Shown in pieces: positions 2,344 through 35,181 of a DNA stretch of 37,697 nucleotides. The notes beneath the pieces are model-generated. The model saw only the letters and a list, made by a program, of their open reading frames with translations, made no database searches and was not told the DNA's origin. Each line of letters begins with the position of its first letter. The first letter of the stretch is position 1. Source of the DNA: a plasmid; sequence record NZ_CP016506.1; one strand, written 5' to 3'. Position numbers and translations under genes: made by a program.

Positions 2344-4493
2344 TTCTTAGCCCTTGCCGGAAAACCCAGCTTCCCTGTTTTCTTATCCTCAAGGACAAGA
2401 ACTGTATCATACGTTCCACCACTTTTCTTTTTAAATCCCTTAATCAAATCGGTTTTCCCTGATTTAACCAGTTTTTCGGCCTGTGCCTGGGTGATTTTCT
2501 TACCAGAAAACTCACTCCAGATTTTAAATTCACATCCGGTACAGAAATAACCTTTTGGCCTGATAACAATATGCTTACCACAGGAAGGGCAGGGAGAGTC
2601 CAGGCGTTGAAACTGCCCTGCTGGCGCAGCGGGTTCAATCTTCATCTCGTCCAGGTCAACATCAGAAATCATGCCTGTCAGTTCACTGTACAGCTCATTA
2701 ATAAACAGTTCCACCGTCAGGTCGCCATTTTCTATGGCAGCCTGCTTTTCAGACCATAATGCTGTCATATCAGGATTAACCGCTATACCAGGCAGGGCAT
2801 CAATAAGCGCATATCCGGTATCAGTAGGAATAAGTTTCCCTTTTTCCAGCGTGATATAGTTTCTTTTCTTCAGCGTTTCCAGAATGGCTGCGCGGGTAGC
2901 TGGTGTACCAATGCCACCATGTTCATCTTTTTTGTCTTTATCCTTATCCTTCAACAATTTTTTAATCGTTGGATCAGTGACAAAATCCGCGACACGAACA
3001 AGCGCAGCAAGCAAGGAGGCTTCGGTGAATAATGGCGGCGGTGTTGTTTTCTTCTCATTAACAACAACTTCTTTTGTCGTCAGTGTTTCTCCTGTGCGAA
3101 TTTTACAGAGCAGTTCAAAAGCGGAATCATCATTATCTTCTGATTCACCTTCGTCTGTGGTTTCCGCGCCAAGAAACGCCTCAAATCCGCTGTCAGTTGT
3201 TTTTCTGGCACGGGCATAGAACGACTCATCACCACACTGAATGGCAACCGATACTTCCTGGTATGCTTTTTCAGGCATAAACTGAACAAGATAGTGTTGT
3301 GCGATCGCCAGGTAAACATTACGCTCGTCGGTGCTGAGTGCGTTAACATCAGGCACACTGGCGGTCGGGATTATCGCAGTATGCGCAGTCACCTTTTCAC
3401 TGTTAAACGCTTTGCTTTTACGTGCAGAATCAATATCCAGCGACTGAGGAAAGACTGATTTCAGGGCATCGATAACCTGCGGCGCTTCGCTGAATTGTTC
3501 ATCAGAAAGATATGAGCAATCAGAGCGGTTATAAGTAATCGCTTTATATTTTTCACGTAATTGTTGCGTAATATCCAGCGTTTTTTGTGCCGTCATTTTG
3601 AACTTTTTGTTCATGTATTGCTGGAGTCTGACCAGGTTAAACGGCAACGGCGCAGCCGTTTTTTTATCATCAGTTGCTGCCGCTTCAACTGTAGCCGGTT
3701 TTCCTGCAAGGGATGCTGCCGTTCCGTCTGCCCACGCTTTATCAAGTAATTTACGGTCTGTCAGCGGAGCAAATTGCCCTGGCTTCCAGTTCGCCCTGAG
3801 AACATCAGCACCACGCTGAAAGACTCCGGTCATGGTGTAGTAAAAACTGGATTTATGGTTCTGGTTAGCACGGGTACGGTTCACAATCAGGCCAAGAACG
3901 GGAGTCTGGACGCGCCCGACAGACAGAACGCCCTGATATCCTCTGACTTTTGCAGGAATGGTGTAAGCACGCGTCATGGAGAAGCCATAGACGGCATCAG
4001 CAACTGAACGCGCCAGCGCCTTAAGGTAAAGCCCTTTGAAATCACGATTATCTTTAAGATTTGCCAGTGCCTTTTTCACTGCCGGAAGCGTGTTATCGTT
4101 AATCAGAACGCGCTTTACGGGTTTTGTGTTTCCTGCATATTCCAGGACTTCATCAACAAGTAGCTGTCCCTCATCATCAGGATCGCCAGCGTGAACAATT
4201 TCAGTCACGTCTCCACGTCTGATAAGTTCGAGAATCGTTTTAACCTGTTTTGCTGCACTTTCAACAGGCTGATACTTCACGGGATAAAGACGTAAAGGAA
4301 GCGTTTCAACCTTCCAGGCTTTGTATTCAGGATTATAGTTTTCCGGCGGCTGTGATTCGATAATATGACCAAAACAGTGAGTCACAATGGCGTTATCACT
4401 TTCAAACCAGCCATCATGGCGGGTAAAGTTGCCACCAAGTGCCTTAACAATATCATTTGCTACTGCGGGTTTTTCAGCGATAAAAAGTCTCAT
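2340..4493 (-). CDS. topB: DNA topoisomerase III with C-terminal zinc-ribbon
   Basis: Toprim N-terminus (MRLFIAEKP), type IA topoisomerase core, and a C-terminal CPSCGK...CTGCEF zinc finger. A GAGGTG RBS precedes the start. Confidence 0.9.
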
Positions 4494-5292: not shown

Positions 5293-7130
5293 AGCAAAAC
5301 CTCAGACTCCAGCTCTCCTACGGAGAGCATTTTTTCTTTTGACGGATATTTAAGCCCTTTCACACCAAATATTTTTTTCGTCTTATTTAGTTTCATCGTC
5401 AATGATGCCAGTTTAGGACTGACCTTCATTAACCTGTCCATAAAATACGGATCAAGGTAATAAAGTGCCTTTTCTGCTTTAACAGGGTTCTCCCCCTTCA
5501 GGATGATAAACTCTTCTTTAAAGTCCAGCGTTCCCAGTTCCTGTGGAAGCACCAGTGCTCTTCGGGCTTCACTTTCTGATTCGCCCTGTGAAGTTGATCG
5601 TCCCCGGTTCTTGCTTGTGCTCTTTGATGTAGTGGTAATATACCCAAGTTTTTCTGATATCTTCGCGGCATCATCCTCTTCGCTGACAGCATAGATAATA
5701 CGGCAGGGATGAGCACTCATCAGTGTTTTGGCTCCCTCAATACCATAGATTTCATTTAGCTGACTGATATTCTGATAAATTGTCAGCAGTTTAAGTTTGA
5801 AACCTGCAATATACCCTGATCCCTTTTTAATAATTGGCATATAACCAATCGAAGGGAACTCATCAAGAAACATCAGGCAGTCATGTTTCAGGGTGGGATC
5901 AAAATCAGGATTTTCACGCAATGTCACTTCAACAACGAAGTTGAAAAACAGGTTCAGAAAATCGTAAGCCAGTGATATATCTTCCGCATTAACACCGACA
6001 TAAACAGTGATATCTTCCCGTCGCAACTGACGGAGATCGAAATCATTACCATCAGTACATTTACGAACGGTTGGGAGATAAAACAGGCTCATTTTCTTAC
6101 GGAAAGAACCATCAATGCTTGAACGCTGTTCATCTTCCGTTTCGTGATATTCCCTGATTTTGGTCAGGGCATCGCGCAAATGATACAACGCGTTTTCATC
6201 AAGCCCGTTTGTTCCCTCCAGTTCTTCCCGCTTACTGAGTATCAGTTCCCGGTCAATATTGCTGTACAAGTCGACGACAGAACCGATTGAGAAAACGGGT
6301 TTAAGCCCGAACTCATTAAGCCAGGACGGCTCATAGTTAATAAAGAAATGAAGCAACTTAGCCAGTCCTGTCCAGTATTGACCCGCAAGATTATTAAAGT
6401 GCGCTTCTGCCCCTGTCATGCCATAAGACGGAAACAGAATTTCAATCAGTTTAAGCAGATCCTTAGCCCCACTCTCCGCTTTTAAATCAATATAGAAAAG
6501 GGGATTAAACTGGTGTGTTTTACTGTTGAAAGGGTCGAGCAGATAAACTTTATTACCCAGCAGTATTTCACGCACCTTACTGGTGATTTTCCACAATTCC
6601 TGTTTTGGATCTAACGCAATCAGAGAGTGTTTTCTGACCAGAAGATTAGGGATACCAATGGCGGCACCTTTACCTGCGCGGGTTCCTGCGCCAAGTGATA
6701 CAAAATCTGGTGCGGTATACCACAGGTATTTACCTTTATATGCTCCGACGAGAATATCAGTATCGTTTTCTTTCTCCCATTTCAGAAGTTTCGATTTCCT
6801 TAAATCATTATCACTGGCAAACTTCGCGTCACCATAAAGAGCAACAGCCGTTTTATTCAGTTGCCAGATAATAAAAACAGGCACGATGAGAGACGAAACC
6901 ATACCTGATAAAAGAGAGGGGATAGCGGTCAACCTGATATCTGTCCGTATATTACTCTCTGTTATTATTCGCCACAGGAGCATGGAATCAAAATTTTTCC
7001 ATATATAAAGCGGCGTTTTTCCGTTCAGGAAGTAAACAGCAACAGAACCAGTATAATATGTCACGAGACACATAACCAGACCGATAAAAGCCCACTGGCC
7101 TTTATCTGGGAGTTTTAAAGACATAATCAC
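5289..7130 (-). CDS. taxB: type IV coupling protein VirD4/TraG family
   Basis: N-terminal TM helices, Walker A GAGTRAGKG, and a TraG/VirD4 core. Confidence 0.9.
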   Translation of the reverse strand: MIMSLKLPDKGQWAFIGLVMCLVTYYTGSVAVYFLNGKTPLYIWKNFDSMLLWRIITESNIRTDIRLTAIPSLLSGMVSSLIVPVFIIWQLNKTAVALYGDAKFASDNDLRKSKLLKWEKENDTDILVGAYKGKYLWYTAPDFVSLGAGTRAGKGAAIGIPNLLVRKHSLIALDPKQELWKITSKVREILLGNKVYLLDPFNSKTHQFNPLFYIDLKAESGAKDLLKLIEILFPSYGMTGAEAHFNNLAGQYWTGLAKLLHFFINYEPSWLNEFGLKPVFSIGSVVDLYSNIDRELILSKREELEGTNGLDENALYHLRDALTKIREYHETEDEQRSSIDGSFRKKMSLFYLPTVRKCTDGNDFDLRQLRREDITVYVGVNAEDISLAYDFLNLFFNFVVEVTLRENPDFDPTLKHDCLMFLDEFPSIGYMPIIKKGSGYIAGFKLKLLTIYQNISQLNEIYGIEGAKTLMSAHPCRIIYAVSEEDDAAKISEKLGYITTTSKSTSKNRGRSTSQGESESEARRALVLPQELGTLDFKEEFIILKGENPVKAEKALYYLDPYFMDRLMKVSPKLASLTMKLNKTKKIFGVKGLKYPSKEKMLSVGELESEVLL

Positions 7131-23335: not shown

Positions 23336-23441
23336 AGGGATTACATTAGGCACTTACGCACAGTGGTTAAAAAATGAGCATATTGTTTTTATGTGTGGTT
23401 GTCTTGGTTCAGAGTGATCTGTCCTCCGGGTTTACGCAAAG

Positions 23442-23489
23442 TTATCCACAGGCGCTGTGAATTTTTTGTTTTGAGCAGAGTTATCCACA
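23442..23489 (+). promoter_or_regulatory. two consensus DnaA boxes TTATCCACA (23442-23450, 23481-23489)
   Basis: Exact matches to the TTATNCACA consensus, 30 bp apart, upstream of an AT-rich GATC-rich stretch. Confidence 0.8.
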
Positions 23490-23499
23490 GATTTTTTGT

Positions 23500-23600
23500 G
23501 TTTTTTTGCTTATTAAACTTCTTGTTTTTAAGATCTTAAATGTAGATCGGTAGATCTACTTTAAGATCTTTAACTTACTTTAACTTATTCTGCAAACATT
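23500..23600. other. oriV: AT-rich DNA-unwinding-like region with 5 GATC sites (origin of replication, gamma-type)
   Basis: AT-rich, with tightly clustered agatct and gatc motifs between the DnaA boxes and the iterons. Confidence 0.7.
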
Positions 23601-23660
23601 GTGCCAGCTTTTTTATCAATAATTTCATTAAGATAGGTGTTGTTTTTTGTCGCCTCAAAA

Positions 23661-23781
23661 TGAAAGGTGGATGGGTACGCACTGAAAGGTGGATAGGTAC
23701 GCACTGTAATTTTCATGAAAGGTGGATGGCTGCGCACTGAAAGGTGGATGGGTACGCACTGAAAGGTGGATGGGTACGCAT
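23661..23781 (+). repeat. five 22-bp iterons TGAAAGGTGGATGGGTACGCAC (four contiguous pairs, one 11-bp spacer) - Rep/pi binding sites of oriV
   Basis: Directly visible tandem repeats. Two further single copies at 23865-23886 and 23950-23968 lie in the pir promoter region. Confidence 0.9.
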
Positions 23782-23864
23782 TTTTCTGTTTTTATTCAGA
23801 TATTCGTATCTTTGTATCTTCATTTCTTTAGTTCTTTATAGTGCTCTAATTTAACGTATGACGT

Positions 23865-23968
23865 TAAAAGGTGGATACCTGCGCATTTCTATCATATTGA
23901 ATATAAATGATAAAAATTCTTTCATGTGATCCGTGTTTTGGTGGAAATACATAAGGTGGATAAACCAC
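23865..23968 (+). promoter_or_regulatory. two isolated degenerate iterons (AAAGGTGGATACCTGCGCAT; ATAAGGTGGATAAACCAC) in the pir promoter - autoregulation operator
   Basis: Sequence matches the iteron core AAGGTGGAT. Confidence 0.6.
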
Positions 23969-27128: not shown

Positions 27129-27225
27129 GACAATTTCCCCTTGTACGGTATGCATTAATAGTAAATATCATACTATCTTTATATTATCTTTACAATGTAA
27201 AGGTTTATAGATGGTATTGATATTA

Positions 27226-27888
27226 CTATAAAATTCCAATTTCCTGCGCCACTAGTTCAATCTGTGCTTTCGCTGTTGAAAGGCTTGATGCCCGGCTAAC
27301 GTCATGTACCCCTGCCCCTTCATTACAGGCGCTTTCATACACATCCAGCTCGGATATCCGGGTTTTAAGAGGTTGAATCCAGATGTTGTCCGAACGCAGT
27401 AATTTATCCAGATCAATGGCCGCTTTTCTGTGGCGGGGTTTCGCTGAGTTGATTCTGGTGAACAGCACCCACGGTTCCAGGGCTGCGTTAGCTTTCTGAG
27501 CGGTGCGGATTTTCTCTGTAACACTGGTCAGAGTTTCGCTTTCGAAATCAGAGGACGGCTTAACCAGTGTTACCACGATATCTGATACTGTCAGGGCGCT
27601 ACGGAACTCCTGGCTGTCGTGGCCGGGGCAATCGACAATGAGGACTTCACACAGCTTACTAAGTCGCTTAATTTCATTGCTGACGTTTCCGTAAGCTGCG
27701 TGAACCGGGATAGTGAGTAAGCCGTTATCTGTCCGCTTTTCGTTCCAGCTCAACAGATCGTGGTTTTTATCTGTCTTGAGGATAATTACCGACTTACCTT
27801 TATTGACCAGCATTGAGCCTGTGTTAGCCACGTAGGTGCTTTTGCCTACACCACCCTTATCTGATACGACAAGCAAGATTTTACCCAT
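27226..27888 (-). CDS. parA: ParA/ParF-type small Walker partition ATPase
   Basis: Deviant Walker A KGGVGKST. 220 aa. Confidence 0.85.
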   Translation of the reverse strand: MGKILLVVSDKGGVGKSTYVANTGSMLVNKGKSVIILKTDKNHDLLSWNEKRTDNGLLTIPVHAAYGNVSNEIKRLSKLCEVLIVDCPGHDSQEFRSALTVSDIVVTLVKPSSDFESETLTSVTEKIRTAQKANAALEPWVLFTRINSAKPRHRKAAIDLDKLLRSDNIWIQPLKTRISELDVYESACNEGAGVHDVSRASSLSTAKAQIELVAQEIGIL

Positions 27889-27889
27889 T

Positions 27890-28140
27890 TCAGAATTCCT
27901 CTCTTTATGACGTAAAGATTATGTAAAGACTGTCTTATCTTTACATTGTGTGTTGTTCGTAAAGATTATTTTGTCTTTACAGTGTCTTTATATTACAAAT
28001 GATTTACCATGTAAAGCACAAATAAAGATAAGCTTGTATTTATGTTATCTTTATTGTGTAAAGATTTGTGTGTATTTATAGTGGCTTTACGTGGTAAAGC
28101 TGAGACTGTCTTTACATCATCTTTATGTTGTAAATTTCTG
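27890..28140. repeat. parC: centromere/operator region: about 10 heptad repeats GTAAAGA / TCTTTAC in both orientations between divergent parA and resolvase
   Basis: Visible reiteration of cgtaaagat, tgtaaagac, tctttacat and similar heptads. Confidence 0.65.
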
Positions 28141-28268
28141 TGTGACATTGTCACTTTATGGTCGGAGGTCTGTTTTCTGGTTCTTTTTGAGTGTGCCTTT
28201 CCTGTCGATCTACTTTCTGGTGCATTTTGGGTATAGTGGTGTAACCTTATGTGAACCGGTTCTGTAAT

Positions 28269-28913
28269 ATGACTTCAAATGTACCAACAAGCTTTGTCCG
28301 CGCTTATCTGAGAGCTTCAACAGCAGAACAGGATGCTTCGCGTGCCCTGGAAACTATCGAGGCTTTTGCCAGGGAAAGAGGCCTGATCATTTGCAGCTAC
28401 TATATTGAGAATGAATCCGGCACCCGTCTTGAGCGCCCGGAACTTTTTCGTCTTCTGAGAGATTGCCAACAAAATGACATTTTGCTTATCGAGGATGTGG
28501 ACAGACTTTCCCGCCTGTCAGGGGAAGACTGGAATACGTTGAAGAAAATGATCCGGCAGAAAGACATCCGGGTTATGGCGGTGAATGTGCCGACGACATG
28601 GATTAATTCTGGTATGAGTGAGTTTGACAGCCGGTTGTTTGCAGCCATTAACGATATGCTGCTGGATATGCTGGCCGCAGTTGCCAGAAGGGACTATGAA
28701 CAACGTCGGGAACGCCAGAAACAAGGGATAGAGAAAGCAAAGAAAGACGGCAAATATAAAGGGCGTAAACCTAATCAAGCCAGACATGATGCAATTATCA
28801 GGTTGATAGAAAGCGGTAGCTCCTGGACACAGGTACAGAAAGTGCTAGGGTGCAGCCGTGGCACAATCAGTAATGCGCTAAAACGTAAAACCGGGCAGAA
28901 ATCCAGTAAGTAG
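28269..28913 (+). CDS. serine recombinase (resolvase/invertase family), multimer resolution
   Basis: N-terminal catalytic motif YLRASTAEQ and a C-terminal HTH (GSSWTQVQKVLGCSRGTI). Confidence 0.85.
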   Translation: MTSNVPTSFVRAYLRASTAEQDASRALETIEAFARERGLIICSYYIENESGTRLERPELFRLLRDCQQNDILLIEDVDRLSRLSGEDWNTLKKMIRQKDIRVMAVNVPTTWINSGMSEFDSRLFAAINDMLLDMLAAVARRDYEQRRERQKQGIEKAKKDGKYKGRKPNQARHDAIIRLIESGSSWTQVQKVLGCSRGTISNALKRKTGQKSSK

Positions 28914-29023: not shown

Positions 29024-29050
29024 AGGCCGGAGGTGGTTAGCCCCCGGCCT
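29024..29050. other. GC-rich stem-loop (aggccggaggtggttagcccccggcct) at 3' end of toxin gene; conserved in second toxin locus
   Basis: Inverted repeat with no U-tract. Followed in both loci by the conserved tagttacgtttccgc. Confidence 0.5.
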
Positions 29051-29067
29051 TAGTTACGTTTCCGCCA

Positions 29068-29151
29068 TCAGCCCATCAACTGGAGAAGGTAGCGAATCAG
29101 TTCAAGAAGTGAGATTAGTGCCCCCAGAACGATGATTGCTTTATCAATCAT
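29068..29151 (-). CDS. dinQ: DinQ-like type I toxin peptide (27 aa, MIDKAIIVLGALISLLELIRYLLQLMG), not in ORF track
   Basis: 22 of 27 residues match E. coli DinQ. GGAG RBS 7 nt upstream. A single TM helix. Confidence 0.7.
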   Translation of the reverse strand: MIDKAIIVLGALISLLELIRYLLQLMG

Positions 29152-29253
29152 CCGTTTACTCCATTATATGGAGCAGACTCCCGATACTTACTCTTACACT
29201 GCCTGTCATATCGGTTGTTCTTCGGTGTTGGTTGAAGACAGTTCCACTCCAGC

Positions 29254-29374
29254 CAGAGCCACCAACTCAGGGCTGGAAAACACAAAAAAGCCCGATTACC
29301 CGTCGGGTTTTTTTGTGCCTGTCGTTTGGCTGTACTTCCGTTTTTTCCCCTTCATTTGAGGGATTTTTCTTTCA
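29254..29374 (+). ncRNA. 120-bp repeat A: candidate agrB-like antitoxin sRNA gene (hairpin ccagcc..ggctgg then bidirectional terminator aaaaaagcccgattacccgtcgggttttttt)
   Basis: 96% identical to 34924-35043. Contains a tgcctgtcg stretch resembling tgcctgtca in the toxin leader. Confidence 0.4.
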
Positions 29375-29835
29375 TTTTTTGTTGCAGCCAATACCGCTGA
29401 TCGCGTTGGCCAACAGAACGATGCCGTTACCGGCATTATCATGAATCCCATTTTTTCAGTAAGTTGCAGCATACAAAGTAATTAAAAAAACGTCATTTTT
29501 TGTTGATGGATGCAGTAGCGGTGGTGTGCTACGTGAAATCTGGGAAATGCTGGCGGGTAAGTGACTCAATTTTTTAATCTCCGCACCTGTTTTTTTGGAC
29601 GTGCCAGCAATTATGACCTGAAGCAGAGGTGCGTCCGACAACAAAAATTCCGATCACCAGAAAAAATTTTGGACATTTTTTCCGATAATGCATTTTTGTC
29701 CAGGGGGATATGAACTACAGGGCAGGGCGAAAAGGAAGCGGTTATCTTGAATATCCATAGGATATGGGCTCATATGCCGGAATAGGGCACCAGATAAAGG
29801 AAATGAATTCAGTGTATGTTGTAACTAATAGGATC

Positions 29836-29859
29836 TGGACAGAATCACCTGAACGTCCA
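29836..29859. promoter_or_regulatory. operator-like palindrome TGGACA-N12-cGTCCA (copy 1)
   Basis: One of four near-identical sites, found only in the island. Confidence 0.45.
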
Positions 29860-29961
29860 GTCGGGCGCTAATCTATAATAAATGACCGTAGAAGGGCCAT
29901 TTCTACGGCAAAGTTCTGGAGATGATAAAATAAGAGCCTTAAACAATAAAAGGATTTGCTT

Positions 29962-30069
29962 ATGACACTGGACCAACTGCTTGAAATCCACGACCGCGCT
30001 GGGCTGAGCACCTATGAACAGGAAACAATTATATCTTTCATTAACCAGCGGCGAGGTGACTTGGTGTAA
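29962..30069 (+). CDS. hypothetical 35-aa protein, not in ORF track
   Basis: AAGGA RBS. 6 nt upstream of the next ORF. Confidence 0.3.
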   Translation: MTLDQLLEIHDRAGLSTYEQETIISFINQRRGDLV

Positions 30070-30074
30070 AAGCG

Positions 30075-30362
30075 TTGCCGGAAATTATGCCTCCAGTATC
30101 TTGCGGCTGGATCTCCAGAAGAATAAAACAGCGTTCTCAGGAGCAGGCAGACGAAAATAGCTGGAATTATTATAAACAGAAGATTCAGGAATGGATAACG
30201 CTAATCGAATTGCATGAGGCATCACTTACCAGGGGGGAAAAGCTAACGCACTTTGTGGGAAAGCATAAATGGTGGTTAGGAGGCACTTGCGCAGTTATCG
30301 CATCAATTACAAGCACTGTGATAGCTAGCTGGATTCTTTCGTTATGGACTTGGGCTAACTGA
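30075..30362 (+). CDS. hypothetical C-terminally membrane-anchored protein (95 aa)
   Basis: C-terminal hydrophobic helix (GGTCAVIASITSTVIASWILSLW). Confidence 0.45.
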   Translation: MPEIMPPVSCGWISRRIKQRSQEQADENSWNYYKQKIQEWITLIELHEASLTRGEKLTHFVGKHKWWLGGTCAVIASITSTVIASWILSLWTWAN

Positions 30363-30677
30363 CGTGACAGAAGCTGCGTTACGTCCAAGTTGATAAAAAG
30401 TTGTTATCCACAGAGAACAGGGCGGTCATCCGGCGGGTTCAATAATATGGTATTATTACAGCACCTTAAAAAATAAGGATTGCGGACGGATGATATATTG
30501 ATAAAGGATACTCATGCGTGTAAAACGCAAAATACCCTGAGTAATCAGGGTATTAAACGCGGAAAAGTAAAGGTTGAGCGCTTTACATTTTCCATTCACA
30601 CCAGAGGCGTGACTAAATCTAAAATTGATTCTACGGCAACGTTCAATCTACGTCAAATCGCCAATGGTTTTCCTGTT

Positions 30678-30809
30678 ATGAAAATTACCGGAGGCTTCAT
30701 GTTGTTAACCATCATCGACACCTATCTTCATGCTTCATTACTGACACAGATACTGGTAATCCCGTTTATCTGTGCGGTGGTGTGGGCGGTAAAGAAAATC
30801 CGGGTATAA
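30678..30809 (+). CDS. small hydrophobic peptide (43 aa; or 36 aa from ATG 30699 after GGAGG)
   Basis: A single TM helix with a KKIRV tail. A strong terminator lies downstream. The ORF track's 109-aa version lacks an RBS. Confidence 0.4.
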   Translation: MKITGGFMLLTIIDTYLHASLLTQILVIPFICAVVWAVKKIRV

Positions 30810-30813
30810 CTTA

Positions 30814-30860
30814 AACATGGCTGGCTGAGAGGCCAGCCATGTTCAGTGAGTTTTGTTTCG
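30814..30860 (+). terminator. Rho-independent terminator (aacatggctggc..gccagccatgtt + T-rich)
   Basis: 12-bp perfect stem followed by gttttgttt. Confidence 0.7.
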
Positions 30861-30862
30861 AA

Positions 30863-30886
30863 TGGACAGAATTACCTGAGTGTCCA
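30863..30886. promoter_or_regulatory. operator-like palindrome TGGACA-N12-TGTCCA (copy 2)
   Basis: Upstream of the 116-aa gene. Confidence 0.45.
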
Positions 30887-30959
30887 ACCCATTGCGGCGC
30901 AGGGATAAAGCTGTAAACTTTTACTGATGAACAAAGTAGCCCGTTGGGCATAAGACAAC

Positions 30960-31310
30960 ATGGAGCAAACCTTGGCTAAGGTAACCAGAATTCAGGCCGG
31001 AAGATACGCAGTCGATGATGGGCGTTGCATTATAAAAAATAACTCTGGGTGGCTTATTGTCGATGCTAATGGCGCTCATGATTTTGGACCTGTCCCCACA
31101 TTAGCAGCAGCTAAGGAATATGTTGAGTCTGGTACTGTTCCGCTAAGGCAGCACAATTTTTCTACATCTCATGGTCGAAGACAAAGTAAAAAAGAATTTA
31201 ATGCGTATTTGGCATCTGAAGCTAAAAATGGCAATCCAATGCCAGCCATTCTTTGGATAATTGTCCTTTGCATCATCTGCGGCATTGTAGTTGCAGTTCG
31301 AGGTTATTAA
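30960..31310 (+). CDS. hypothetical C-terminally membrane-anchored protein (116 aa)
   Basis: Soluble N-terminal domain and a C-terminal TM helix (ILWIIVLCIICGIVVAV). Confidence 0.5.
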   Translation: MEQTLAKVTRIQAGRYAVDDGRCIIKNNSGWLIVDANGAHDFGPVPTLAAAKEYVESGTVPLRQHNFSTSHGRRQSKKEFNAYLASEAKNGNPMPAILWIIVLCIICGIVVAVRGY

Positions 31311-31313
31311 TCT

Positions 31314-31337
31314 TGGACAGAAAATGCTGTATGTCCA
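31314..31337. promoter_or_regulatory. operator-like palindrome TGGACA-N12-TGTCCA (copy 3)
   Basis: Upstream of the 169-aa gene and the OLD gene. Confidence 0.45.
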
Positions 31338-31393
31338 GTCAGCCGGAGAATTATACTAGCGACCATGATCATCACAGGAAGAACGCGTAACAG

Positions 31394-31903
31394 ATGGCAA
31401 CTGAGTGGGTAGATGTGGCTGATAATGCCGTTAAAATTGGGCTGGGTGCATTAATCACCATTGTTGGTGGCTGGATTACACTGAAATTAACACACTGCCA
31501 CGAAATAAGAAAAGATGCAATAGCTCAGCGACTGCGGGATATAGATAAAAAAACTGACCGCTATATAGATTTTCTTTCTTCATCGCAAACGCTAATGCAG
31601 AAATATCTTTATGAATCATGTGATCCAGGTAGCGAGGACTACACCAATTATATGCGGTTGCATAATATTGTAAGCCTGACATCCTCCCCTGAATTGCGAA
31701 TCTATGCTTTTGATACTCAGTCCAAAGTATCGCAATTTATCCTGCTCAGAAAGCCCAACGAACCAGAGGTTATTGATTCCTGTCGCAATGCCGCGAGAAA
31801 CGCCGTTTCTGTGCTTCAGGGGGCAGTGAGTGCTGAATTGCTTCAGGATAAAGCAGCACTTCAGGACAAACAACATGCATGGTGGGCTTTCTGGCGAAAA
31901 TAA
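31394..31903 (+). CDS. hypothetical N-terminally membrane-anchored protein (169 aa)
   Basis: AGGAAG RBS. N-terminal TM helix. Confidence 0.55.
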   Translation: MATEWVDVADNAVKIGLGALITIVGGWITLKLTHCHEIRKDAIAQRLRDIDKKTDRYIDFLSSSQTLMQKYLYESCDPGSEDYTNYMRLHNIVSLTSSPELRIYAFDTQSKVSQFILLRKPNEPEVIDSCRNAARNAVSVLQGAVSAELLQDKAALQDKQHAWWAFWRK

Positions 31904-32008
31904 AGCAGAACAGTGGAGGAAGAGCCATTTATCCAAGTAGCGAAAGACAGTTAAAGCCTTGGGAAAAAATGTCGATAATCCGAGCAATATTCTATCGTAG
32001 GAAGAAAA

Positions 32009-33910
32009 ATGGAAATAGTATCATTTAAAGTTTCTCAGTATAGGTCTATTTCAGGGGAGATATCCTCTGATAACTTTAATGGATTAACCATTGTTGGGCA
32101 AAACAACAGTGGTAAAACAAACCTATTAAAAGCTATGAGGGTTTTTTTTGAAGGAAAATTTAATCCTGACTTATATGACTATGAAAAAGATAAGCCACAT
32201 GGTGTTAAGCAAGGACAAACTAGTTTTGCTGTAAGATTTACTTTTTCTGAAAGTGAGCTAGATGATGTCTCTGAGGATTTGAGCCAAGACGATGATGATG
32301 ACGATGATGACTCGATTATTGAACTTGGTGTTTTAGGGGAGCAAGAAGAACCTAGTAATTCTATTTCATTTGATGATGGCAGCTCTAAACAACAAGAATC
32401 AAAACCAACTCAATCAAGAGGCAGAAAGCTAAGTTTGAGAGATAGATATTTGCAGCTGTTTAACATGATTGATGACTCCAGGTTAAATTCACCTCAAAAC
32501 GAAGTGACCGTACATCTGACAATATCTAATAAAAACAATTACTTTTACACTGTCTTTAAAGGTTACAAGAGGAAACCTGAAGTAACTTCCTCCATGTATA
32601 CATCTGTTGAAAGAAGGTTCATAGAAAAAATACTTTCTAGTTTTGAGTGTGTGTATATACCATCGTCAAAAAGTATTGATGATATATATCATAATCTATT
32701 AGTTCCATATGTTAGGAGTGAAGTAGCTTCAGCCATGAAAACATCGGTTCAAGTGATTCATGATAAACTGTTGGAAGTGTCTGAAAAGATAACAAATGAA
32801 ATGATTCTAAGCGGTATAGATGACTGTAGCTTTATGATTAAAGCTCCGCCATCTCTTGATGAGTTATTTGGTCGCTTTGAGGTTTCAATAAAAGATACTA
32901 TTGAGAATGTGATATCGAGTAAAGGTATGGGGCTACAATGCTTATCTTTATTTTCTTCATTTAAATCTATTTCAGAGAGAAAACTTACTCTAGGTAAGAA
33001 AACGATTTGGATGGTTGAGGAGCCTGAGTCTTTCTTGCATCCCTCATTAGGCCGGTCATGTAATCACATTTTCAAATCACTGATGGATGTTGCTTATGTT
33101 CTTATTACAACTCATTCCTTATCATTTGTCAGTGATGAGCCAAGTAAGATCATTGAGTTATATAAAGATGACGCCGGTGTTACAAAAGATAAAAAGCATG
33201 AAAAAAGATTTAATGCAGTTGCAAGCATAAGAGAAAATCTTGGGGTCAGATTTTCTGATTTCTTTAACATATCAAGTAGTGCAGTTTTCGTTGAAGGTAT
33301 CACCGACAAACAATATATAGAATCAATATTGAAATTGACATCTGAACATGATGAGTTTAAGAACAGATGGCCTTTTCTGAGGAGTGCTAAAGTTGATGAG
33401 TTTGGTGGAGTCAGTCAACTTGGGGGATTCTTGAAAGGGTGCTACGAGTTTATTTCTAAAGATGTCCCCGTAATATCTGTTTTTGACGGTGATGAAGCTG
33501 GGGTCAAAGAAAGAACCAGATTACAAAGCTACTTTGGTAAAAAACAAATTAGATTTGAGTCAAATAAAGACTATATTTCTGTAAGAAGTGGTTTTGCTAT
33601 TGAAGGCCTCTTCCCTGACGATTTCATTTCTGACGCAATGGAAACCCATCCGTCGTGGTTTATCGGAGGAAAATCTGTTGATGCCGATGATGTAATTGAA
33701 CCATTCAAAGTGCAAGATAATAAAAAAACTAACTTATTAAATTTCTTCCTGGAAAAATGTCGTGTTCAACCTATATGCGGTTGGATTTCTCGGTGGGAAA
33801 AGGTGTTTAACGTCATAGACTCAGCCTTGCGAGATAAAAGTGAATCCATCACAAACAAAAAACGAACCGAAGATACTTCCGGTAACACTTCAGCTCATCA
33901 AGCTGCATAA
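32009..33910 (+). CDS. OLD-family ATP-dependent nuclease (ABC-type ATPase + C-terminal Toprim)
   Basis: Walker A GQNNSGKTNLLKA. The OLD signature Walker B VEEPESFLHP. H-loop ITTHS. Toprim motifs VFVEGITD and FDGDEAG. AGGAAG RBS. Confidence 0.85.
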   Translation: MEIVSFKVSQYRSISGEISSDNFNGLTIVGQNNSGKTNLLKAMRVFFEGKFNPDLYDYEKDKPHGVKQGQTSFAVRFTFSESELDDVSEDLSQDDDDDDDDSIIELGVLGEQEEPSNSISFDDGSSKQQESKPTQSRGRKLSLRDRYLQLFNMIDDSRLNSPQNEVTVHLTISNKNNYFYTVFKGYKRKPEVTSSMYTSVERRFIEKILSSFECVYIPSSKSIDDIYHNLLVPYVRSEVASAMKTSVQVIHDKLLEVSEKITNEMILSGIDDCSFMIKAPPSLDELFGRFEVSIKDTIENVISSKGMGLQCLSLFSSFKSISERKLTLGKKTIWMVEEPESFLHPSLGRSCNHIFKSLMDVAYVLITTHSLSFVSDEPSKIIELYKDDAGVTKDKKHEKRFNAVASIRENLGVRFSDFFNISSSAVFVEGITDKQYIESILKLTSEHDEFKNRWPFLRSAKVDEFGGVSQLGGFLKGCYEFISKDVPVISVFDGDEAGVKERTRLQSYFGKKQIRFESNKDYISVRSGFAIEGLFPDDFISDAMETHPSWFIGGKSVDADDVIEPFKVQDNKKTNLLNFFLEKCRVQPICGWISRWEKVFNVIDSALRDKSESITNKKRTEDTSGNTSAHQAA

Positions 33911-33984
33911 TCGATTGTGTGCACCAAGGTTGCACATACACCTGATTAATCAAGAGTGAGACCATAACAAGCCTATATCAGATA

Positions 33985-34016
33985 ACAGCCCTCTTCATAA
34001 GAGGGCTGTCTTTTTC
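33985..34016 (+). terminator. Rho-independent terminator (acagccctcttcataagagggctgt + TTTTT)
   Basis: 10-bp stem and a T-run. Confidence 0.75.
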
Positions 34017-34239
34017 GCGGGCATCGTACTTGGAAAATGGAAAACATCCTACGCTAAGAGCGTTTTTTAAACAACCGGCTTGTTGGTTTTTACGAGATAC
34101 TGTGCAGTTGAAGGAACAAGATAAAGGAATTAAAGACCCTTTAGTACCATACTTTCATGAAATTTTCCCATATTTTCTTTTAGATCGTGCAACAGCGAAA
34201 AGACGTAGGAATTGGCTTGATTAGCCGCAATACTATTTC

Positions 34240-34262
34240 TGGACAGAATGAGTGTATGTCCA
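34240..34262. promoter_or_regulatory. operator-like palindrome TGGACA-N11-TGTCCA (copy 4)
   Basis: Downstream of the OLD gene and upstream of the toxin-2 locus. Confidence 0.45.
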
Positions 34263-34441
34263 AGTCGGGCGAGGAATTAAACGAGGGGCGTAAAAAAGGC
34301 CGCTTACGCGACCTCAGCCTTTTGCGGTTTTGGCTTGGTGATATACCACGATAGACAACCGACAAACATCGCAACAGGGAAAGGAAGAAGTAAACAGCGC
34401 CCCAAAATGCTCATAAAATCCATAAATCCTCCTTTGTTAAA

Positions 34442-34470
34442 GGGCAGGAAGCGGTTCACTTCCTGCCCTT
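34442..34470. other. GC-rich stem-loop (gggcaggaagcggttcacttcctgccc) at 3' end of second toxin gene
   Basis: Counterpart of 29024-29050, followed by the same tagttacgtttccgc. Confidence 0.5.
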
Positions 34471-34489
34471 AGTTACGTTTCCGCTGTCA

Positions 34490-34585
34490 TCAGTCGATGA
34501 ACTGGCGAATCAGTTCCAGAATTGCAATCAGCGCGTTTGCAACGGCGACCACAGCCCTGAGAACGATGATTAACAAATTAATCAT
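34490..34585 (-). CDS. DinQ-family-like type I toxin peptide 2 (31 aa, MINLLIIVLRAVVAVANALIAILELIRQFID), not in ORF track
   Basis: Same architecture as 29068-29151, with GGAG-aaacgg-ATG, a shared ELIR motif, and the same flanking sequences. Confidence 0.6.
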   Translation of the reverse strand: MINLLIIVLRAVVAVANALIAILELIRQFID

Positions 34586-34923
34586 CCGTTTCTCCAGTAA
34601 AACTGGAGGAAATCACCGTTGCTTACTCATACACTGCCTGTCACAACGGCTCTCTCGCATTGTTAGGTGTAGAGTGACCTCCTCCTGCCAGAGCACCGAA
34701 TACAGCACCACCTGTTTATCCAGCCAGGACTTTAAAATCGTTCATACCCGCAGATACGGGAAGGGCAGGATTGCAAGTCAACTACATGACTAACTGACTG
34801 ATTATACGCTACACAAAACACCCGTTACACCACTAAATGTGGTTCCTTAACCACATTTAGTTGCTTTACAGCACCATAGTGAATAAAATGTAAACGTTAG
34901 GTGTAGAGTAACCTTCTCCAGTC

Positions 34924-35043
34924 AGAGCCACCAACTCAGGGCTGGAAAACACAAAAAAGCCCGATTACCAGTCGGGTTTTTTTGTGCCTGTCGTTCGGCT
35001 GTACTTCCGTTTTTCCCCCTTCATTTGAGGGATTTTTCTTTCA
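34924..35043 (+). ncRNA. 120-bp repeat B: second copy of candidate agrB-like sRNA gene with bidirectional terminator
   Basis: 96% identical to 29254-29374. Confidence 0.4.
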
Positions 35044-35181
35044 GTTTTTTATCGGTGACTGTTTCATGGCTGGATTAATGTGGGGGTAAGGTATAGAGCA
35101 TTGCCTAACCTGCAAACTTTCAATACATTAGTAAGATTAGGATTTTTACTTACTCATCCAAACGAAAAAATGGAATGAAAA

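Follow-up and report, generated by a model that had tools for sequence, protein, structure and literature searches.

What are the short inverted repeats that recur in the accessory region of an IncX1 plasmid, and what do they do there? The window analysed here (sequence record NZ_CP016506.1; 37,697 bp) is essentially a complete IncX1 plasmid, whose region 29400-34500 is 100% identical to pB182_37, an IncX1 conjugative plasmid of Salmonella Heidelberg (NC_017624.1). An accessory region, with a serine resolvase gene (28251-28913) on one side and the hns/hha/topB backbone on the other, contains several copies of a palindrome of the form TGGACA-N11/12-TGTCCA. A preliminary description of this DNA regarded the palindromes as island-specific operators through which a single repressor or activator controls the whole island as a regulon. 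Comparison with other plasmids leads us to a different reading, to which we give an even chance: the repeats would be polar junction or recombination elements of a cassette-like accretion array, integron-like in its layout without being an integron, and with an optional promoter role.

Exact matches to TGGACA-N11/12-TGTCCA are found at 30863-30886 (copy 2), 31314-31337 (copy 3) and 34240-34262 (copy 4, 23 bp), where 0.01 would be expected from shuffled sequence. A relaxed pattern, TGGACAGAA-N10-GTCCA, adds 29836-29859 (copy 1; TGGACAGAATCACCTGAACGTCCA), the right arm of which reads CGTCCA. Searching with up to two mismatches yielded five matches, against 0.30 expected; they represent four distinct sites, 31314-31337 being matched on the minus strand too, and none of 100 shuffles reached this total. 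The near-identical inverted repeats reported at 29836, 30863, 31314 and 34240 are thus real, and the mismatch-tolerant search uncovered a fifth, decayed copy that had gone unlisted (30364-30387; GTGACAGAAGCTGCGTTACGTCCA, i.e. GTGACAGAAG...CGTCCA). At the orthologous position, 7127, of an IncFIC plasmid (locus L004) this copy is nearly intact. The four strong copies fit TGGACAGAA-N9/10-GTCCA, and on the plus strand of the whole 37.7-kb plasmid the 9-mer TGGACAGAA occurs at these four sites only. The copies are asymmetric, with a conserved 9-mer as left arm, and all lie on the plus strand in the same orientation.

The earlier placement of the repeats in intergenic DNA ahead of genes holds for four of the five copies (29836, 30364, 30863 and 31314), which are followed by a plus-strand open reading frame (ORF) within ~60-150 nt. 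It does not hold for the copy at 34240, after which come GC-rich DNA, GGAATTAAAC and, in reverse complement, the terminator of a small ORF that converges on it from the minus strand, nor for the gene of an OLD-family ATPase, which has no copy of its own and is placed after a 169-aa protein gene behind the copy at 31314. Folded as single-stranded DNA, the copies are weak (-4 to -6.6 kcal/mol, z -0.4 to -1.1), and a terminator scan returned no site at any of them. Intrinsic terminators and REP-like hairpins were rejected on these grounds, which favour duplex DNA, and in physical terms the palindromes are most plausibly binding sites for a protein. A perfect DnaA box (TTATCCACA, 30404-30412) is present right after the degenerate copy, far from the iteron origin (23431-23888), which holds two such boxes.

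The element at 29670-29702 (TGGACATTTTTTCCGATAATGCATTTTTGTCCA, TGGACA-N21-TGTCCA) had been listed as a longer-spaced variant of the same repeat. It is indeed present; however, it is not a variant but a distinct, strongly conserved 33-bp head, found once per array upstream of the first 24-bp copy. Eleven loci with a head were compared (the window, L003, L004, L005, L010, L013, L015, L019, L024, L025 and L034), giving the consensus TGGACAyTTTTTCCGATAGTGCCGrAATGTCCA. The head is single in each locus, co-oriented with the copies and located 67-133 bp to the left of the first palindrome. In the alignment of these loci, conservation is limited to the head and the first palindrome, the flanks being otherwise unalignable; directly before the head (29646-29669 in the window, plus strand; CGATCACCAGAAA...), CGATC and nearby bases are nearly invariant across the 11 heads despite the unrelated plasmids that carry them. 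In their right halves, the head and the 24-mer are almost the same (CCGGAATGTCCA and CCTGAATGTCCA, respectively). The head is situated next to plasmid multimer-resolution or partition genes, and in 8-9 of the 11 loci its immediate neighbour is a gene for a site-specific recombinase. Between the head and the first palindrome of the window, 8 bp to the left of copy 1, lies a perfect Tus-type Ter core (GTATGTTGTAACTA, 29814-29827), the sole one in the plasmid, whose position is conserved in an IncX4 plasmid (L005).

Contrary to the supposition that the repeats are confined to this island, the 65-bp unit at 34236-34300 matches 1002 of 72,556 plasmids in PLSDB, which belong to several incompatibility (Inc) groups, and the repeat occurs in ~20 species of Enterobacterales, hardly ever on a chromosome. 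Among 5426 complete E. coli genomes the unit was found in 466 places, 459 of them on plasmids. In its oriented form it is present in IncFII, IncFIC, IncX4, IncX1/FIB and pKpQIL (IncFIIK) plasmids. Scanning one genome per species with the exact palindrome pattern, a narrow one that included ACCTG, retrieved 26 loci, ~20 of which come from different Enterobacterales (Hafnia, Dryocola, Serratia, Citrobacter, Erwinia, Pantoea, Izhakiella, Kosakonia, Enterobacter and Scandinavium, plus E. albertii); no E. coli, Salmonella or Klebsiella chromosome matched in this narrow scan. In viral contigs the palindrome was found in three loci and the head in none. Full-text literature searches with the repeat sequences returned no relevant paper, and nothing specific emerged from keyword searches on IncX operators or on plasmid defence hotspots containing repeats of this kind. 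Two Serratia species carry single palindromes at an orthologous chromosomal locus (L026, 6540-6563; L030, 246-269), flanked by a gene for a 227-aa protein with a hydrophobic N-terminus and an 839-aa helicase-like gene; the 227-aa gene is also found as a module of a plasmid array (L020).

The arrays share a simple anatomy. Sixty-one non-redundant copies give the logo TGGACAGAAT.ACCTGaATGTCCA, with conserved arms and ACCTG in the loop. The palindrome is followed by a GC-rich stretch (+1 to +11) and an AT-rich box (+12 to +18), and no conservation is seen upstream, so that each module starts with a unit of ~45 bp made up of the palindrome, ~11 GC-rich bases and the AT-rich box. Arrays of 7, 6, 5 and 5 copies occur, and among loci with at least two copies the orientation of the copies is uniform in 26 of 29 (e.g. 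7/7, 6/6, 5/5). Neighbouring copies are separated by 137 to 2937 bp (median ~520 bp), and some of those 137-200 bp apart have no gene between them. The 61 unique copies stand in 42 unrelated downstream and 46 unrelated upstream contexts. The strand of the genes, in turn, is random relative to the copies: the longest ORF of a module lies on the strand of the palindrome in 28 cases and on the opposite strand in 24, the remaining nine modules having no ORF. In a Dryocola array all of the genes are antisense to the copies, one of which has TATACT 15 nt outside its left arm, on the other strand. The cargo of the arrays generally consists of small hydrophobic proteins, toxin-antitoxin pairs and defence candidates of the OLD, Abi and FRG types.

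Homology between loci tends to break at the repeats. When all loci were compared with one another by BLAST, 543 distinct homology ends were obtained, and 88 of these fell within 15 bp of a copy, a 12-fold excess over the 1.4% expected. Homology starts concentrate at position -1/0 of the left arm, and homology ends at +8/+9 or right after the palindrome, which indicates that crossovers lie in the left arm and that the loop, the right arm and the box belong to, and probably travel with, the module to the right. Partial megablast matches likewise begin or end at the palindromes (query 1464-1913, corresponding to window 30863-31312; query 437, 29836; query 460, 29859; query 1917-1919, 31316-31318), the last of these marking the copy at 31314 as a homology start in many plasmids. 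Recent events can be followed among IncX1 plasmids that are ~99% identical to the window in the array region. Two of them (L043/L044) have two additional modules, 1.83 kb in all, inserted exactly at the copy at 29836; in L045/L047 the segment 29836-30862 is swapped for one unrelated module; in L008 the head/Ter flank is fused directly to the loop of the copy at 31314; and in L046 the end of a truncated IS1 lies 1 bp to the left of the copy at 30863. Altogether, at least six different first modules are found behind the same IncX head/Ter flank. Moreover, the 450-bp unit 30863-31312 recurs with 97-98% identity in IncFII and Enterobacter plasmids, between unrelated flanks.

It is the distribution of the repeats, their polarity, their coincidence with breakpoints, their portability and the single head that lead us to prefer the junction reading. 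Anatomy, polarity, distribution and the coincidence of copies with breakpoints are established directly, and from these we infer the steps of binding, cleavage and transcription. In an array, a single 33-bp head would precede a series of short modules (median ~0.5 kb), each opened by the ~45-bp unit. Modules would be inserted, deleted and exchanged through crossovers in or at the 9-10-bp left arm, with the loop, right arm and box moving with the right-hand module. A protein that recognizes the sequence would catalyse the exchange; in the simplest case it would be a dimeric recombinase, or an asymmetric pair, on the two TGGACA arms. In some modules, including those behind the copies at 29836 and 31314, the AT-rich box is a proper -10, and the unit probably doubles as the promoter of the module. 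A more specific proposal, which we regard as possible but put forward tentatively, is that of a so far undescribed, integron-independent cassette system: the 33-bp head would be an attI-like and the 24-bp copies attC-like sites, served by a non-IntI recombinase (ResD-like, resolvase-like or supplied by the host) that captures small defence, toxin-antitoxin and membrane-protein cassettes and shuffles them among IncX, IncF and other backbones.

Several observations weigh against the repeats being true recombination sites. Two unrelated classes of recombinase neighbour the head: in IncX4, pKpQIL and a Hafnia plasmid the enzyme is a tyrosine recombinase of ResD-like type, and in IncFII, IncFIC and Izhakiella it is a serine resolvase of the family present in the window. 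The head is essentially identical beside either class, for which reason we rejected the idea that it co-varies with the neighbouring enzyme. The IncX4 plasmid has no serine recombinase, and the window retains the tyrosine enzyme as a remnant only. Furthermore, the central regions of the copies differ, and classical tyrosine or serine recombination would not tolerate such mismatch. The crossovers coincide with the longest identical stretch (10 bp), which would be equally preferred by short-homology or RecA-type exchange; the breakpoint data are therefore no proof of site-specific chemistry. The array loci from the pattern scans were chosen by the motif itself, which renders the arm conservation in the logo partly circular. 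Finally, rfsF, the established site of ResD, is a different sequence in F, R64 and pKpQIL (CATGTAGTGCC-N16-GGCACTATATG) and is located elsewhere, ahead of the resD operon. The rfsF region and the centre of the head have no more than the octamer ATAGTGCC in common, and an identity of the head with rfsF or the ResD site was rejected.

The operator interpretation has more in its favour at the window's own copies, which it fits reasonably well, than across the arrays, and overall we consider it rather unlikely. It would have a dimeric regulator bind the TGGACA arms overlapping the -35 position, with the -10 located 14 nt downstream, and co-regulate the accessory genes as a regulon. TATAAT (29874-29879) and TATACT (31352-31357) indeed follow exactly 14 nt past the palindromes at 29836 and 31314, and this fixed distance, together with the lack of a usable -35, suggests dependence on a factor. 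Of 71 copies, 13 have a good -10 at a fixed position, defined as at least 4/6 matches including A2 and T6 within +13 to +22; such a -10 (+15 to +20) is enriched before an ORF on the same strand (10/34 versus 3/37, Fisher p=0.03), from which it would follow that some modules use the unit as a promoter and most do not. The arms are also conserved while loop and flanks diverge between the orthologues of the window and the IncFIC plasmid, and the weak hairpins agree with a duplex protein-binding site. A precedent exists in the CUP repeats of IncN plasmids, which are bound by ArdK (PMC6289460). Against this, 58 of the 71 copies have no good -10, the orientation of the copies is independent of gene strand, gene-free gaps of 137-200 bp separate some of them, the distance between the arms (11, 12 or 21 bp) varies in a way unusual for a rigid helix-turn-helix dimer, and the breakpoints are left unexplained.

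Nor did a regulator come to light. The ORFs of the arrays gave no DNA-binding Pfam match, and clustering of the ORFs around arrays produced no family common to all loci, only recombinases, ParA, UmuC, H-NS, insertion sequence (IS) elements and cargo families. No regulator common to IncX1, IncX4 and pKpQIL is evident: H-NS and Hha are the only candidates that the complete annotations of IncX1 and IncX4 have in common, and neither is annotated in the stretches covered for pKpQIL (24 kb) and IncF (~13 kb). Consensus sequences for LexA, CRP, Fur, sigma-54, sigma-28, sigma-E, IHF, Fis, ArgR and other E. coli sites were compared with the copies by eye, and none fits all of them. The near confinement of the 65-bp unit to plasmids (only 7 of the 466 E. 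coli places are chromosomal), together with the lack of a match in E. coli, Salmonella or Klebsiella chromosomes in the narrow exact-pattern scan, gives no sign of a host regulon. CUP/ArdK is the closest described regulatory analogue, and the resemblance extends to the KorA/KorB/KorC systems of IncP-1: in both, as here, several genes of a conjugative plasmid with accessory or establishment functions are preceded by a short repeat. CUP repeats overlap promoters and have been suggested to aid gene acquisition (PMC6289460, citing Delver and Belogurov 1997). In the CUP and Kor systems, however, the plasmid itself encodes the matching regulator and the sites are oriented as the genes are, whereas here no regulator was found, the orientation is array-wide, most copies are promoterless and many Inc groups are involved. 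The proposal of a single regulator is thus partly supported, by a repeat that resembles a protein site, by the -10 sequences at two copies and by the -10 enrichment, yet the strand indifference, the promoterless majority and the coincidence with breakpoints mean that it is not the best-supported reading.

Could the ~45-bp unit instead be a passive patch, a mobile promoter or stretch of homology that no dedicated protein recognizes, and whose rare homologous or microhomology-driven shuffling is followed by selection of the cargo? We judge this unlikely, although it accounts well for the crossovers at the longest identical stretch, TGGACAGAAT, for the fact that no recombinase is consistently present and for the likeness of palindromes within one plasmid, which share 24/26 bp. 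L003 and L007 have the identical rare variant TGGGCAGAATTACCTGAGTGTCCA with different modules downstream of it, suggesting exchange on either side of the palindrome, as a passive patch would allow. Stretches of 10-26 bp are at or under the minimum for efficient RecA exchange, and yet insertions and deletions of modules are seen among plasmids ~99% identical to the window in the array region. The arms have remained intact across very divergent hosts whose flanks are unalignable, which calls for a sequence-specific function; strict polarity and a unique head find no explanation; and at the truncated-IS1 junction of L046 there is no homology on the partner side.

That the copies belong to a known family of sites (integron attC/attI, Xer dif/cer/pdif, ResD rfsF or serine-resolvase res subsites) is highly improbable. 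The geometry does recall an integron, in that a recombinase gene, a single distinct head and co-oriented junction repeats delimiting short cassettes are all present, and the variable half-site spacing (23, 24 and 33 bp) is reminiscent of res subsites. The details differ in each case. Against the integron integrase model TIGR02249 (cut-off 265), the IncX4 and pKpQIL neighbours score only 54.7 and 58.7 bits, and the closest solved relatives of the neighbouring tyrosine recombinases are weak XerC-like, IntI4 and XerD matches; no RYYYAAC...GTTRRRY core of attC is discernible in the 61-copy logo, nor is there a stable single-strand fold. In Xer sites, XerC and XerD arms of 11 bp each enclose a centre of 6-8 bp (TTATGTTAAAT-like). 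Neither the copies nor the head contain a TTATG.TAAA arm, and all sites are direct rather than alternating, so dif, cer, psi and pdif were discarded. Subsites of a res would be expected as a group of two or three within ~120 bp beside the resolvase gene, whereas the copies are dispersed over 4.6 kb; the upstream region of the resolvase itself carries different repeats (TCTTTA/TAAAGA), and arrays exist on the IncX4 plasmid, which has no serine recombinase.

The junction reading is best placed by comparison with described systems of module exchange. As in integron arrays, a special head site lies by a recombinase gene, short cassettes (~0.15-3 kb) have one co-oriented imperfect palindromic repeat each, the crossover falls at the edge of the repeat, which moves with one cassette, variability is greatest next to the head, and toxin-antitoxin and phage-defence genes are part of the cargo. 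Unlike in integrons, there is no IntI, attC core or folded single strand; the repeat measures 24 bp instead of 57-141 bp and stands on the opposite side of the cassette relative to the head; the genes are found equally on both strands; and the neighbouring recombinase is ResD-like, a serine resolvase or absent. The pdif modules of Acinetobacter plasmids (XerC/XerD) are comparable as small accessory modules bounded by short sites and shuffled between unrelated plasmids without a dedicated plasmid-encoded recombinase, but they have 28-bp XerC-spacer-XerD sites in alternating orientation, whereas the repeats described here are all direct and have no Xer arms. The rfsF/ResD system of F, IncI1 and IncR plasmids occupies the same plasmid neighbourhood, ResD genes adjoining the head in pKpQIL and the Hafnia plasmid. 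rfsF has been reported as a switch point for the exchange of accessory segments (PMC8004404, PMC9412624) and is the closest described one in this neighbourhood; it differs in sequence and position, and occurs once or twice, not in an array.

Should the repeats be true recombination junctions, IncX1, IncX4, IncF and pKpQIL plasmids, which are clinically important, would share a common cassette platform, through which phage-defence and addiction genes are traded without recourse to integrons, transposons or IS26. The variable region that recurs by the resolution and partition genes would thereby be explained, and head plus junction repeat would provide a simple sequence handle for new defence candidates. 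If the repeats are operators instead, they would define a cross-plasmid regulon whose regulator is probably supplied by the host.

Four modules, all on the plus strand, make up the array of the window. The first (29860-30363) contains ORFs of 35 aa (29962-30069) and 95 aa (30075-30362), which correspond to one 130-aa coding sequence in the IncFIC plasmid (L004, 6723-7115); judging from this comparison, the gene behind copy 1 looks split in the window by a frameshift or stop. The second module (30388-30862) encodes a 109-aa product (30480-30809) with a C-terminus that is hydrophobic on reading of the translation, and the third (30887-31313) a 116-aa product (30960-31310). The fourth (31338-34239) comprises the 169-aa protein gene (31394-31903), whose product has a hydrophobic N-terminus and belongs to a family present in nine loci, and the OLD-family ATPase-Toprim-like gene (32009-33910). 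The latter matches Pfam AAA_15 and, in PADLOC, Old, AriA and GajA; between its Walker A region and the remaining ATPase domain it has an acidic low-complexity insert encoded by a run of Asp codons (32270-32320, LSQDDDDDDDDSI).

Of the genes on the left of the array, the serine resolvase (28251-28913, plus strand; Pfam Resolvase and HTH_7) is a neighbour and a candidate actor; ORF clustering places members of its family next to arrays in eight loci. Next to the head, the minus strand at 29528-29641 retains a 5'-terminal remnant of a ResD-like tyrosine recombinase gene of the IncX4 type. The remnant is annotated as a pseudogene in NZ_CP146677, and IncX4 has a full-length homologue (274 aa) at the same position. 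It appears that in IncX1 the tyrosine recombinase was replaced by the serine resolvase, while its upstream region, the head, was retained. Repeats of the TCTTTA-N5-TAAAGA type are dense at 27160-28144, where they occur downstream of parA (27226-27888) as well as in the region separating parA from the divergent resolvase gene, and are probably a partition centromere and/or a res site.

Some further features surround the head. A KOPS-like octamer (GGGCAGGG, 29720-29727) lies between the head and Ter, directed towards the array, and one or two such octamers are also seen in the G-rich head-to-palindrome spacers of two Dryocola loci (L015 and L025). Given ~4 occurrences in the plasmid, its placement may be due to chance. 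A link to the terminus and Xer, suggested by this octamer and the Ter core beside copy 1, was ruled out as there are no Xer-type arms, and a sigma-28-like match in the IncX head was dismissed because it is not conserved in other heads. In the IncFII plasmid (L003) the ~110-bp sequence that precedes the head (3170-3280; 5760-5900 in L004) recurs in diverged form at the far end of the array (6480-6600), just before a sopA-like operator, and it looks as if the whole array had been inserted into the res-parA intergenic region of this plasmid. A related second perfect palindrome, TGTTCAGAA-N5-TTCTGAACA, is found between the serine resolvase gene and the head of IncF-type loci (L004, 5820-5850; also L003, L024 and L034).

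The array of the window is bracketed by two copies of a dinQ/agrB-type type I toxin-antitoxin module, as judged from repeat analysis and Rfam. These diverged direct copies of a dinQ-like toxin and AgrB antisense RNA module (29043-29380 and 34462-35049) contain a 134-nt repeat with 96% identity, and their AgrB matches on either side of the array (29228-29315 and 34897-34984) are all that Rfam returned. Beside dqlB, a minus-strand ORF for a 59-aa hydrophobic protein (34297-34476; WP_000347021 in relatives) converges on the copy at 34240. Small hydrophobic minus-strand ORFs are also encountered between copies in pKpQIL, IncFIC and IncX4 plasmids, and may be further type I toxin-like genes.

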